This document shows positions 32,622-64,000 of a DNA stretch of 64,000 nt, in pieces. Location: IMG/VR virus record IMGVR_UViG_3300045988_145635; one strand, 5' to 3'. Below the pieces are notes generated by a model, which saw only the letters and a list, made by a program, of their open reading frames with translations, did no database searches and was not told the origin of the DNA. The translations under genes were made by a program, and so were the position numbers. Numbering within the stretch: the first letter of the stretch is position 1; each line of letters starts with the position of its first letter. This DNA comes from a virus (lineage: Duplodnaviria > Heunggongvirae > Uroviricota > Caudoviricetes).

Positions 32622-32719
32622 TCTGGGAGCTTATTTAAAGACCTGCTTCTGTATATATAAATAATAAGTAACTTATTAAATATATACGGAAGCAGGCTTA
32701 GTAAGACATGCCCAGACCT
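32622..32719. repeat. Long palindrome, copy B (core 32642-32696) with outer inverted repeat GGTCTGGG / CCCAGACC
   Basis: cctgcttctgtatatataaataataagtaacttattaaatatatacggaagcagg; lies just upstream of the terminase genes. Confidence 0.65.
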
Positions 32720-60869: not shown

Positions 60870-61391
60870 TTATTCTTCGAACAATTTTTCGATAGATTTT
60901 GTAGGATAGAACAAAGAACGCTCGTTGTTACCAACCAGCTGGATAAAGCCTAAACTTTTATAAAACGCCTTGGCTTTGTCATTTAACGCCTCAACGAAAA
61001 GTCCATGAATGCCTACAGCAAGAGATGCATTGTACACAACGCGCATTGCATGTGTTACAAGCATTGAGCCAAATCCTTGACCTTGAAGGGACTTGTCCAA
61101 AGCCAGCCTACCCAAAGTAACACTTGGAACATTCCGATAAGGAACCTTCTTTTGTTTGCTTCTTGAAGGTAAGGACTCCTTTTCAAAACAACTACCTGAC
61201 AAAGTGTAATATCCTAACACTTTTGGCCTTTCTTCTTGAGTGCAAAGCACATAAGCACGAAGAATTTTTCCCTCATGCTGCCTTTTTAAGTGGTTGGCTA
61301 AAAAGGCGTTTAGTGACTCTTCGCCGCAATCAAAACCGTTTAGATCATAATCTTTCTCTCCAGAGAAAATCTCTATCGTTGTATTGCTCAC
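60870..61391 (-). CDS. GNAT-family acetyltransferase toxin (TacT/AtaT/ItaT-like)
   Basis: 173 aa; GNAT core (QGQGFGSMLV); paired with an upstream DUF1778-type gene. Confidence 0.7.
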   Translation of the reverse strand: MSNTTIEIFSGEKDYDLNGFDCGEESLNAFLANHLKRQHEGKILRAYVLCTQEERPKVLGYYTLSGSCFEKESLPSRSKQKKVPYRNVPSVTLGRLALDKSLQGQGFGSMLVTHAMRVVYNASLAVGIHGLFVEALNDKAKAFYKSLGFIQLVGNNERSLFYPTKSIEKLFEE

Positions 61392-61398
61392 GAGTAAA

Positions 61399-61668
61399 CT
61401 ACTCCATGCTTTTCAGACGATCAGCAGCTCGTTTCAGCTTGTCGTTCGGTGCCGGAGGATTGCTTATAGCGTCCATAACCAGATTCCAGGACTCTTCACT
61501 CAGAACCAGTCTTCGATGTTGCTCTATAACTTTCACGGCACGTTCAGATGCACTGCTAACCATAAACTGAGTAATGCTCTGGTTAGACATTGCGGCAGCT
61601 TCCTCGATGATGCTTTTATCGTCATCGGTTAATCTCAAATCGATGCGCTGCTTTTTTAGTGCTGACAT
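61399..61668 (-). CDS. DUF1778-type RHH antitoxin (TacA-like)
   Basis: ~89 aa from the AGGAGG-preceded ATG; immediately upstream of the GNAT gene on the same strand. Confidence 0.65.
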   Translation of the reverse strand: MSALKKQRIDLRLTDDDKSIIEEAAAMSNQSITQFMVSSASERAVKVIEQHRRLVLSEESWNLVMDAISNPPAPNDKLKRAADRLKSME

Positions 61669-61934
61669 GTATTCCTCCTGATGGCCGTGATGTAGGAAGG
61701 CCATCAATCTCCTCTGTTCAAACTGAGTTTTCGACTCAAAAATTACTTTAAAAGGCTATAGCCCATTACGTGTGCATTATCAAATTGTGTACGGCATATC
61801 ACCGTACTTGTAATATAGAGGTCATTGTTACTTTTTTCAACAGACAAATACAAGCTATGATTGCCAATTGTTAATCACAACCTACCATTTAACCTTTACA
61901 CCGCAGCCGTAGGCATTTAGGCTATATCACATAT

Positions 61935-61986: not shown

Positions 61987-62655
61987 ATGACCAAGATCTT
62001 TGTGGTTGGCGGCACAAAGGGCGGGCCTGGCAAATCCACCGTTGCCCAGCAAATTGCCGTTTGCCTTAAAGTCAAAAAGAAGAAGAAGGTTTATATCACT
62101 GATATAGATATTCAGCGCACGACAACAAGCTGGTGTGAAGACCGTCGACAGAACGAAGACCTTGAGCTGATTCCTTTTGCATACGTTCAGGATGACATCA
62201 TTAAGCACCTAAAATCGCTTCAGGGTAGAGCTGAGTATGTAGTGGTAGATGCTGGTGGCTTTGACTCCGAAATTCAGCGACAAGCGATGCTGATGGCCGA
62301 CGTTATCATTATCCCGCTTCGTCCTAAGCGTCGTGATTTGAAATCTCTGCGTGACATTGATCCTATTATCGACAATGTTCGTAATGTAAACGATAAAGTG
62401 AAGGTCCGCGCGGTCATGAACCAGTGCCCGGCTTTGCCATCACAAGTGTCTCGCATTCTGGCGGCTAAAGAGATTGTTGAGACGTTTGGCATCGAGTCTG
62501 CGCCAGTCAATCTATATAACCGCAACGTCTATGATGATGCGGAAGAGTCTGGTCGTTCTATCTTTGAAATGACCGGTAGCGAGCGCGACAAAAAGGCGGA
62601 AGCCGAGTTTGAAGAATTTGTAGATTATCTGTTGAGTCTGGAGGAAAAAGAATAA
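61987..62655 (+). CDS. ParA/ParF-type partition ATPase
   Basis: Deviant Walker A GGTKGGPGKST; 222 aa. Confidence 0.8.
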   Translation: MTKIFVVGGTKGGPGKSTVAQQIAVCLKVKKKKKVYITDIDIQRTTTSWCEDRRQNEDLELIPFAYVQDDIIKHLKSLQGRAEYVVVDAGGFDSEIQRQAMLMADVIIIPLRPKRRDLKSLRDIDPIIDNVRNVNDKVKVRAVMNQCPALPSQVSRILAAKEIVETFGIESAPVNLYNRNVYDDAEESGRSIFEMTGSERDKKAEAEFEEFVDYLLSLEEKE

Positions 62656-63014
62656 TGTCCATGAAAATGGGTGACCTAGCAAAGCGCAAAGAGCCTGATG
62701 CACCGGCTAAGAACACAACTCCTTTGCGCCAACCAGTCAGACCACAGGGACGCCCGACTCGTGGCAAAGAGAAAATTAAAAGCCGCACAATGTCACTGGA
62801 GGACGAATACTTCGAACTGCTGGAGATGATGAAGTTCATCCCTCGCTTCGAGAAGTTCACTCGTTCTGACGTGATTCGTGCTGCTATTTTCCATCTTGCG
62901 GAGAAGACACCGCAGGAAATCGAGGACATCGTGAAACTTAACGAGGCGATCACCGCTGCCGATGTCACGATGCGTACCGATGAAATCAAACGAGAGTTGA
63001 TGAAGAAAGGTTAA
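62655..63014 (+). CDS. Small RHH-type centromere-binding protein (ParG-like)
   Basis: TAATG-coupled to the ParA-like gene; basic N-terminal tail plus C-terminal beta-alpha-alpha pattern. Confidence 0.55.
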   Translation: MSMKMGDLAKRKEPDAPAKNTTPLRQPVRPQGRPTRGKEKIKSRTMSLEDEYFELLEMMKFIPRFEKFTRSDVIRAAIFHLAEKTPQEIEDIVKLNEAITAADVTMRTDEIKRELMKKG

Positions 63015-63018
63015 AAAT

Positions 63019-63051
63019 CATGCATTGGCGCGTACATTGCGCCAATGCATG
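63019..63051. terminator. Bidirectional hairpin terminator between convergent genes
   Basis: 13-bp perfect stem CATGCATTGGCGC / GCGCCAATGCATG. Confidence 0.55.
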
Positions 63052-63066
63052 AGTACAATGTCAGTT

Positions 63067-63834
63067 TTATGCCGCGCTAACACTATGTTCAGTCCTAACC
63101 ACCCCAACCTTCACAAAAGGGCTACCGTAGCTTGGTGGCTTCTTGATTAATTTGCCTACATACAGTTTTCTAATATGCTCATCGGCTATTCTGCCAACAA
63201 ATTCATAACGTTTTGTGTCGGGGCCAAGAGCTATATCCCTTGTAAAGTACTGCTGAGAACCGGCTTTGACCCAGCATTCAATCTGATAAACTTCCATTAT
63301 CAGCCCACCATATGTAGCGTAGGCATATTTGAGATTCTCGTCTCTTGGAACCTTTGCCCATACGCCACGCGTAGCTTCATATAATGCCAGAGCGGACATT
63401 CCTGACTTGTAGGTGCTGTTTAGCAGGAAGGCAAGACCGGCGTGCTCAGGAGCAATTTCAGTTTCCTCTTGCAGCACTAAGTGATGGTAGGCGTCCAGTG
63501 ATATTCTGCCCATCATGGAACCACTTCCTCGTACCTTATTCGTAAGCTCTCCGACCCCCATAAGGTCGATGCATGTCGCCTCAACAAGTTTGGCTGTGGT
63601 TTCATCCATACCATGACGAAGTATATCTATGCCTAATTTTTTATTAGCCAAAAGTTCTTTGATCCGCATGGATTTGGGAGAGTCATCGGGATACTTGATG
63701 TGATCGAGACAACGAGTCGATTTGCCTTTTCCTATGTAAAACGGTCTTTTCATCTTGTCTTCTGTATCATAGAGACAGTAAACATAGTATTTAGCCTTAT
63801 CCAATGATCTCGCGTATACCGATAAATCGTCCAT
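63067..63834 (-). CDS. GIY-YIG nuclease-domain protein with uncharacterised C-terminal domain
   Basis: N-terminal YYVYCLYD ... PFYIGKGKSTRCLDH fits the GIY / YIG / R / H pattern. Confidence 0.55.
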   Translation of the reverse strand: MDDLSVYARSLDKAKYYVYCLYDTEDKMKRPFYIGKGKSTRCLDHIKYPDDSPKSMRIKELLANKKLGIDILRHGMDETTAKLVEATCIDLMGVGELTNKVRGSGSMMGRISLDAYHHLVLQEETEIAPEHAGLAFLLNSTYKSGMSALALYEATRGVWAKVPRDENLKYAYATYGGLIMEVYQIECWVKAGSQQYFTRDIALGPDTKRYEFVGRIADEHIRKLYVGKLIKKPPSYGSPFVKVGVVRTEHSVSAA

Positions 63835-63944
63835 TATTGCATCTCTTTGCTACTGACTAATGCGTTCTATTTTACACATAAGTTTTTAATCAATTTAACA
63901 GGCTCAAAGTGTAGAGCTTCTGGGCGTCTAAGACGACAAGTTAT

Positions 63945-64000
63945 GCCTGCTTCTGTATATATAAATAATAAGTAACTTATTAAATATATACGGAAGCAGG
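63945..64000. repeat. Long palindrome, copy C (truncated by window end)
   Basis: Identical to copy B over the visible length; left flank TTCTGGGCGTCT resembles copy A flank TTCTGGCGTCT. Confidence 0.6.

Follow-up and report, generated by a model that had tools for sequence, protein, structure and literature searches.

A diverged, loop-less member of the PD-T4-3/CMoRE restriction family in an exchangeable cassette of an SSU5-like phage-plasmid

The subject of this study is a nuclease gene located at positions 63067..63834, on the minus strand, of a 64,000-nucleotide stretch of viral DNA (IMG/VR virus record IMGVR_UViG_3300045988_145635) that we refer to as the window. Based on its open reading frame (ORF), a match to the PADLOC hidden Markov model (HMM) for PD-T4-3, a sequence match in the PDB, and structural matches found with Foldseek, we assign the gene to the described PD-T4-3/CMoRE type IV restriction family, as a diverged member without the acidic loop, and not to a new kind of system. 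Its product, which we call the window protein, is very probably a modification-dependent restriction nuclease. The gene is complete and intact: it opens with an ATG, encodes 255 amino acids, and closes with a stop codon at positions 63067-63069 of the window (minus strand). An initial annotation of this DNA, made from the sequence alone, had located the ORF exactly. The same coding sequence is annotated by RefSeq and GenBank in identical plasmids, where it carries the label 'hypothetical protein' or 'LEM-3-like GIY-YIG domain-containing protein'.

PD-T4-3 was first found in ECOR68 in the selection of Vassallo et al. 2022, the main text of which describes it as 'a GIY-YIG nuclease' and gives no further detail (PMC9519451). 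The system was characterized biochemically and structurally in 2026 and renamed CMoRE (Liu et al. 2026, PMC12923530), using proteins from E. coli O157:H7 and APEC O1 and yielding PDB entries 9U75, 9U8D, 9U7U, and 9U7Z. According to that work, CMoRE is a one-protein type IV modification-dependent restriction enzyme (MDRE) in which an N-terminal GIY-YIG domain, with a 'GIYxY-YIG' motif (Y17, Y19, Y31) and a 15-residue acidic lid, is joined to a C-terminal domain that binds 5-hydroxymethylcytosine (5hmC). The enzyme cleaves DNA containing 5hmC or its glucosylated form (5ghmC) at CN11/N9G and spares DNA containing cytosine or 5-methylcytosine, it must assemble into a homotetramer (a dimer of dimers) to be active, and it restricts phages T2, T4, and T6 through direct immunity (PMC12923530). 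A homolog from Capnocytophaga, PD-T4-3Capno, shares 48% identity with the PD-T4-3 first described and is likewise a modification-dependent nuclease (Rodriguez-Rodriguez et al. 2025, PMC12366544). This enzyme acts against T-even phages and spares T4-GT7, its active-site mutants are inactive, and it degrades Mu mom-modified DNA as well as the glucosylated hydroxymethylcytosine (ghmC) DNA of T4 (PMC12366544). PD-T4-3Capno and the window protein are both members of the PD-T4-3 family.

Relationship of the window protein to CMoRE

The PADLOC HMM for PD-T4-3 aligns residues 11-231 of the window protein with profile positions 11-238 of 256 (E 1.3e-23, 81.9 bits). When the window protein is searched against the sequences of the PDB, only 9u7u and 9u75 are found, with an E-value of 2e-15 over residues 12-230. 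Its overall identity to both crystallized CMoRE proteins is 32% and spans both domains, amounting to 36-38% in the N-terminal domain (E ~1e-12) and 29-31% in the C-terminal domain (E 1e-9 to 1e-7). Likewise, when an AlphaFold2 model of the monomer (pLDDT, the predicted local distance difference test score, of 84.7) is submitted to Foldseek, the top four matches are PD-T4-3 structures, at an E-value of 1e-11 and a probability of 1.0. The whole-chain Foldseek TM-score to the crystal structures is 0.37, a low value that we attribute to a differing orientation of the two modeled domains about a flexible linker. A model of the C-terminal domain by itself superposes on the corresponding CMoRE domain at 2.4 Å.

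The organization of the locus is that of a single-component system, since the 931-bp cassette in which the gene resides contains one ORF, with no partner gene and no methyltransferase. This sets the window gene apart from GIY-YIG type II enzymes such as Eco29kI and Hpy188I, as it lacks a cognate methyltransferase and its C-terminal domain is a modification sensor. The subfamily to which the window protein belongs comprises 288 clusters in a word-indexed search, its members are 245-255 amino acids in length, and the 90% cluster of the window protein holds 372 sequences. General annotation resources return little for the protein. Pfam identifies only a GIY-YIG domain (LEM-3_GIY-YIG, PF22945, residues 32-104) at 30.1 bits against a cut-off of 27, a search of NCBIfam gives no match, and PHROGs gives the unannotated family phrog_5356 in addition to an insignificant match to a homing endonuclease (E 0.28).

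The N-terminal GIY-YIG domain is encoded by positions 63520..63834 on the minus strand and contains the 'GIYxY-YIG' motif as Y17-V-Y19 and Y33-I-G35, together with R41, H45, E85, and N99. The GIY/YIG/Arg/His pattern that the initial annotation recognized in the N-terminus is therefore borne out by a Pfam score above the cut-off and by the key residues, each of which is invariant across 40 homologs with 50-79% identity. Y17-V-Y19, Y33-I-G35, R41, and E85 (and also N99) align with Y17, Y19, Y31, Arg, and Glu of CMoRE, and counterparts of all of the mutationally validated active-site residues of CMoRE are present in the window protein. Missing catalytic residues, which the initial annotation had regarded as fatal to its proposal, are thus not what we find. 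At the interface, CMoRE residue V92 is conserved in the window protein as V84, whereas CMoRE L96 is replaced in the window subfamily by an invariant cysteine (C88).

The clearest departure from CMoRE lies between helices alpha2 and alpha3 of the nuclease domain. CMoRE has an inserted acidic loop at this position (DDDE/DDDD), and the window subfamily does not. In a MAFFT alignment, the alpha2-alpha3 loop of the window protein and of all 16 aligned subfamily members is ~6 residues shorter than that of CMoRE. In the window protein, the loop consists of Y48-P-D-D-S52 (positions 63682..63696, minus strand), as delimited by the alignment with two CMoRE sequences and by the modeled helices (H41-47 and H53-63), and this YPDDS sequence contains only two acidic residues (D50 and D51) and no run of four. 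In CMoRE, changing the four acidic loop residues to alanine raised activity, allowed ordinary DNA to be cut, and was toxic (PMC12923530). The same authors state that 'most', and not all, family members have the acidic loop (PMC12923530), and therefore the loop is a typical rather than a strictly defining feature of the family. Since the window subfamily lacks this acidic safety catch, its discrimination between self and non-self DNA must be achieved in some other way.

The sensor domain and the likely substrate

The C-terminal domain of the window protein, comprising approximately residues 122-247 and encoded by positions 63094..63471 on the minus strand, is homologous in both sequence and fold to the modification-sensing domain of CMoRE. 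The two proteins share a family-conserved sensor core (R156, W159, W188, F212, and G214) and an LYE.TRG.W motif, and the window subfamily has a conserved C-terminal tail, RS.G.PFVKVG, that aligns with C-terminal residues of CMoRE up to chain position 258. Of the possibilities offered by the initial annotation for this domain, that of a modified-base reader in a type IV restriction-like enzyme is the right one, given the homology to a domain that senses 5hmC and 5ghmC. Its description of the domain as uncharacterized holds insofar as there is still no Pfam model, but the domain was solved and functionally assigned in 2026 (PMC12923530). The conserved residues R156, W159, W188, and F212 may form the real pocket for a flipped base, as opposed to the edge site at which free 5hm-dCTP is bound in the crystals.

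We scanned 1.84 billion cluster representatives with HMMER using residues 112-255 (E ≤ 1e-3) and retrieved 753 proteins. Among the best 150 of these 753, 47 have a GIY-YIG domain (four of them with tandem sensors), 59 are short (≤160 amino acids), and the remaining 44 are other architectures or fragments. A Pfam scan of the longer proteins reveals the sensor in combination with SRA and a McrB-like AAA_5 domain (P0207, 1046 amino acids), AAA_5 alone (P0261), HNH (P0223 and P0264), the PD-(D/E)xK nuclease domain HSDR_N (P0172 and P0187), a Swt1-like HEPN domain (P0220 and P0185), and a Ser/Thr kinase (P0146 and P0212). The fact that the sensor has been shuffled among restriction modules provides independent support for its being a reader of modified DNA, and the kinase and HEPN fusions hint at uncharacterized systems that would sense modified DNA and respond through signaling or abortive infection. 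GIY-YIG members with two or three tandem sensors were also observed (P0124, 377 amino acids; P0138, 489 amino acids; P0139; and P0154), and these probably match the architectures to which the CMoRE paper refers as 'type II-IV'.

A profile built from diverse sensor segments alone recovers CMoRE's C-terminal domain (chain residues 133-258) with an E-value of 1e-15 and recovers nothing else from the sequences of the PDB. Pfam models likewise give no match to the stand-alone sensor proteins, and in the C-terminal domains of 40 subfamily members, searched with E-values up to 10, they give nothing other than DUF7811 (PF25103), which appears below threshold in five of them (for instance at residues 137-193 of P0065), the lowest E-value among the five being 4.2e-5; in the one member that we inspected, the score is 15.1 bits and the cut-off 27. 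Given these empty scans, we conclude that Pfam holds no model for the sensor. Nor is there a sequence-level match of the sensor to the EVE, ASCH, YTH, or SRA models of Pfam or to the PDB sequences of such domains, which sets it apart from the MDREs with PUA-superfamily sensors, namely the EVE-HNH enzyme VcaM4I, enzymes of the TagI/ScoA3IV type, and the YTH-like and EVE-like N-terminal domains of McrB. At the level of structure, the sensor bears a weak but consistent resemblance to PUA-like readers, with scores in the twilight zone, and since the sensor profile recovered only CMoRE from the PDB, the link to PUA-like domains is a structural one. The CMoRE paper reported no structural homolog of the sensor and regarded its fold as distinct (PMC12923530). 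The resemblance in our models suggests, and does not prove, that the sensor is distantly related to PUA-like domains.

By analogy with the characterized enzymes, hmC and ghmC would be the main substrate of the window protein, an assignment that we favor somewhat. The papers that we consulted describe no family member as diverged from the tested enzymes as the window protein, and for this reason the substrate is assigned by analogy. Several observations weigh against our explanation as a whole. The autoinhibitory acidic loop, which CMoRE needs to spare ordinary DNA, is absent from the entire subfamily. The residue whose main chain contacts 5hmC in CMoRE (Y127) maps to a linker that aligns poorly, around L121 of the window protein. 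Identity to any biochemically characterized member is 32% at most, a level that does not secure substrate specificity. Lastly, a scan for the sigma-70 consensus upstream of the nuclease gene finds no promoter, so that the promoter of the gene is an inferred one.

These considerations leave room for a protein of the same family and fold that has a different or broader substrate, such as the carbamoylmethyl-adenine of Mu, arabinosyl-hydroxymethylcytosine, or hypermodified thymidines, with looser gating resulting from the missing lid. Consistent with this, the sensor domains are just 29-31% identical, PD-T4-3Capno displays plasticity in cutting both T4 ghmC DNA and Mu mom-modified DNA (PMC12366544), and a loop that contributes to the specificity of CMoRE is absent here. 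Nevertheless, the core sensor residues and the LYE.TRG.W motif are those of CMoRE, the host is E. coli, in which T-even phages are abundant hypermodified predators, and every family member tested to date restricts T-even phages. We therefore regard a different or broader substrate as rather unlikely, and it is in any case a refinement of the explanation given here and not a contradiction of it. At 29-31% sensor identity, sequence by itself does not disclose precisely which modifications are recognized. Taking the nuclease and sensor domains together, we tentatively picture the window protein as part of a lid-less CMoRE clade whose nuclease is gated in some other way and whose targets are perhaps altered or broader, with a sensor that would be a diverged PUA-like reader from a large mobile family (753 representatives).

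The cassette and its surroundings

The 1.4 kb around the nuclease gene match E. coli plasmid p204A1-109K with 100% identity and the Escherichia phages CMS-2020a and PhiR41_1 with 98-99%. Salmonella phage SSU5 and Klebsiella phage-plasmids match as well, at lower identity and in the partition genes alone. On the basis of these matches, we assign the window to an SSU5-like phage-plasmid, and the window protein, set beside CMoRE, differs in being carried on such an element. The genes in this region are arranged in the order tail fiber, lysis cassette, GNAT/DUF1778 toxin-antitoxin, parA, a small parB-like gene, the nuclease gene on the opposite strand, and a replication module that encodes a 246-amino-acid protein, a helicase, a primase, and a ligase.

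The nuclease gene fills a variable slot that has the parB-like gene on one side and the replication module on the other. Homology to phage Cyrano, which lacks the gene, ends at the stop codon of the parB-like gene (63014) and resumes at a palindrome (~63946). Therefore, positions 63015-63945 constitute an exchangeable unit, a single-gene cassette or 'moron' of 931 bp (63015..63945) with boundaries derived from alignments with Cyrano and PhiR41_1. Within the cassette, the non-coding region upstream of the gene (63835..63945, minus strand) is cassette-specific and absent from Cyrano. It presumably holds a promoter and a ribosome-binding site of its own, as we read in it an AAGAG motif that precedes the ATG by ~9 nt, along with a TAAAAT hexamer resembling a -10 element at 63869-63874. 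At the other end of the gene, 15 nt past the stop codon, lies a hairpin resembling an intrinsic terminator (63018..63052, minus strand), in which a perfect 14-bp stem (arms at 63018-63031 and 63039-63052) encloses a 7-nt loop and is followed on the minus strand by TTTTTAACCT. The folding energy of the corresponding RNA is -25.6 kcal/mol (z -6.7), and none of 200 shuffled sequences folded as well. This hairpin is the sole terminator-like site found in the region, it lies on the strand of the nuclease gene, and it is absent from Cyrano and hence belongs to the cassette rather than to the backbone. A strong hairpin beside the gene had been pointed out in the initial annotation, and its perfect 14-bp arms confirm it.

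Among 5426 complete E. coli genomes, the cassette is present at 97.8-100% identity in 106-107, in each case on a plasmid and never on the chromosome. A plasmid with the same parAB is carried by 264 of the 5426, and ~40% of these have the cassette. The G+C content of the cassette is 43.5% compared to 46.3% for the window, which places it at the 18th percentile, and its base composition thus gives no sign of foreign origin. A 2025 preprint had already counted PD-T4-3 as one of the defense systems of the SSU5-like phage-plasmids in E. coli and Shigella. In one E. coli plasmid (NZ_CP107722.1, positions 72064-72219), the cassette is reduced to its first 156 nt, which comprise the terminator hairpin and the gene's 3' end and seem to have been left behind when the cassette was replaced or deleted.

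In relatives of this phage-plasmid, the slot holds other genes. Cyrano carries a 267-amino-acid DUF2971 protein (CYRAN_30, L003 6412-7215). SSU5 has three genes, of which the third encodes a DUF2971 protein (SSU5_037, L004 5068-5826) and the other two are unannotated (214 and 136 amino acids), and the Klebsiella element pJN2-26 also has three genes, which we liken to those of SSU5 by size and position alone. The DUF2971 proteins of Cyrano and SSU5 match the PADLOC candidate defense family PDC-S31 (E 3e-41 and 2e-33), and thus the slot behaves as a small hotspot for defense cargo.

Since the gene has a GIY-YIG fold and is present in some related phage-plasmids and missing from others, one could suppose that it encodes a free-standing homing endonuclease that cuts the cognate slot in cassette-less relatives and spreads by recombinational repair, with the C-terminal region serving as a sequence-specific DNA-binding module; the DNA-binding module of a homing endonuclease was among the options that the initial annotation offered for this region. 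However, that region has the CMoRE sensor fold, the Pfam searches of the 40 members (E up to 10) found no NUMOD, zinc-finger, or helix-turn-helix domain, and elsewhere the same sensor is fused to McrB-like, HNH, and PD-(D/E)xK restriction modules. Homologs with 55-79% identity to the window protein are solitary chromosomal genes amid housekeeping genes (in Providencia, Shewanella, and others) and are not located in phages or introns. Furthermore, the slot is never empty in the relatives we examined, in which other cargo is found. In contrast to GIY-YIG homing endonucleases such as I-TevI and the T4 Seg proteins, the window gene has neither a sequence-specific DNA-binding module nor an intron or intein context. 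We therefore consider a homing function highly improbable, and this option of the initial annotation is not supported.

The right edge of the slot is marked by a 55-bp near-perfect palindrome, CCTGCTTCTGTATATATAAATAATAAGTAACTTATTAAATATATACGGAAGCAGG, which occurs in three copies ~31.3 kb apart (1287-1341, 32642-32696, and 63946-64000). The copy beside the nuclease gene, 'copy C' of the initial annotation (63946..64000), is thus real and has two counterparts; it is an element of the backbone that lies outside the cassette and is conserved in Cyrano and SSU5, both of which have other genes in the slot and no nuclease. Half-sites of the palindrome are matched 6 times in the window compared to 0.34 expected by chance, every copy is intergenic and lies at a boundary between blocks of plus-strand genes, and as RNA the palindrome would form a hairpin of -27.9 kcal/mol (z -8.6). 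It could possibly terminate transcription in both directions, serve as an operator, or act as a dispersed centromere, for which the sopC repeats scattered in phage N15 offer a comparison. A search upstream of parA for centromere-like repeats found none that resemble the 55-bp palindrome.

We considered the palindrome as a target or partner of the nuclease and rejected this, given its conservation in relatives that have no nuclease gene. The tie between the gene and its flanking DNA structures that the initial annotation implied therefore does not hold in that form: the hairpin is the terminator-like element of the gene itself, and the palindrome belongs to the backbone, whatever fills the slot. 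For similar reasons, it is scarcely credible that the gene encodes a structure-specific housekeeping nuclease of the LEM-3/Slx1/UvrC type that processes hairpins or cruciforms such as these palindromes during plasmid replication or partition, as its RefSeq name, its position next to partition and replication genes and long palindromes, and the standing of UvrC as the nearest nuclease fold outside the family might suggest, because the gene is missing from ~60% of the E. coli plasmids that have this parAB and is thus dispensable, the palindrome stays conserved whatever gene the slot contains, the name given by Pfam denotes nothing beyond the generic GIY-YIG fold, and the chromosomal homologs have no such palindromes or plasmid context.

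Two further features of the neighborhood were noted. A GNAT-toxin and DUF1778-antitoxin pair of the TacT/KacT-like kind (60870-61707, minus strand) occupies another variable slot, which separates the lysis cassette from parA and in which PhiR41_1 and SSU5 have two unrelated hypothetical genes (the PhiR41_1 pair has no Pfam or PADLOC match). Thus, parAB is flanked by cargo slots on both sides. The 119-amino-acid gene that follows parA (62655-63014, plus strand) presumably encodes a partition adaptor and belongs to no Pfam family. Its counterpart in Cyrano is annotated as 'RelE/ParE putative toxin', a label that nothing in our data supports.

Proposed mechanism and significance

The nuclease gene opposes the operons on either side and comes with an upstream region and a terminator of its own, which makes its expression from the resident plasmid-prophage probable. 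By homology, the sensor at the C-terminus of the window protein would bind DNA that contains modified bases, most likely the 5-hydroxymethyl- and glucosyl-hydroxymethyl-cytosine of T-even phages, and the N-terminal GIY-YIG domain (Y17, Y19, Y33, R41, E85, and N99, with a divalent metal) would then cut the modified DNA. The oligomeric state and the cleavage geometry would be expected, by analogy, to follow those of CMoRE. Unmodified DNA of the host and the plasmid, including DNA methylated by Dam and Dcm, would be spared, and because the subfamily lacks the acidic lid, this discrimination is presumably left to the sensor domain alone. In this way, the lysogen and the element would be protected from lytic hypermodified phages by direct immunity and not by abortive infection.

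What is new about this member of a described family is the missing autoinhibitory lid, together with the breadth and possible PUA-like ancestry of the sensor domain. A natural loop-less clade would provide a ready test of the charge-repulsion safety catch proposed for CMoRE and might supply enzymes of altered specificity as tools for mapping 5hmC. The recurrence of the sensor with McrB, HNH, PD-(D/E)xK, HEPN, and kinase partners points to further candidate defense architectures that would sense modified DNA beyond PD-T4-3, and its PUA-like resemblance calls into question the claim that the sensor fold has no relatives. For the phage-plasmids themselves, an unexplained ORF becomes identifiable anti-phage cargo in ~40% of the E. 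coli SSU5-like phage-plasmids that share this partition locus, which fits a picture in which temperate elements arm their hosts against phages of the T-even type by means of exchangeable cassettes in hotspots.
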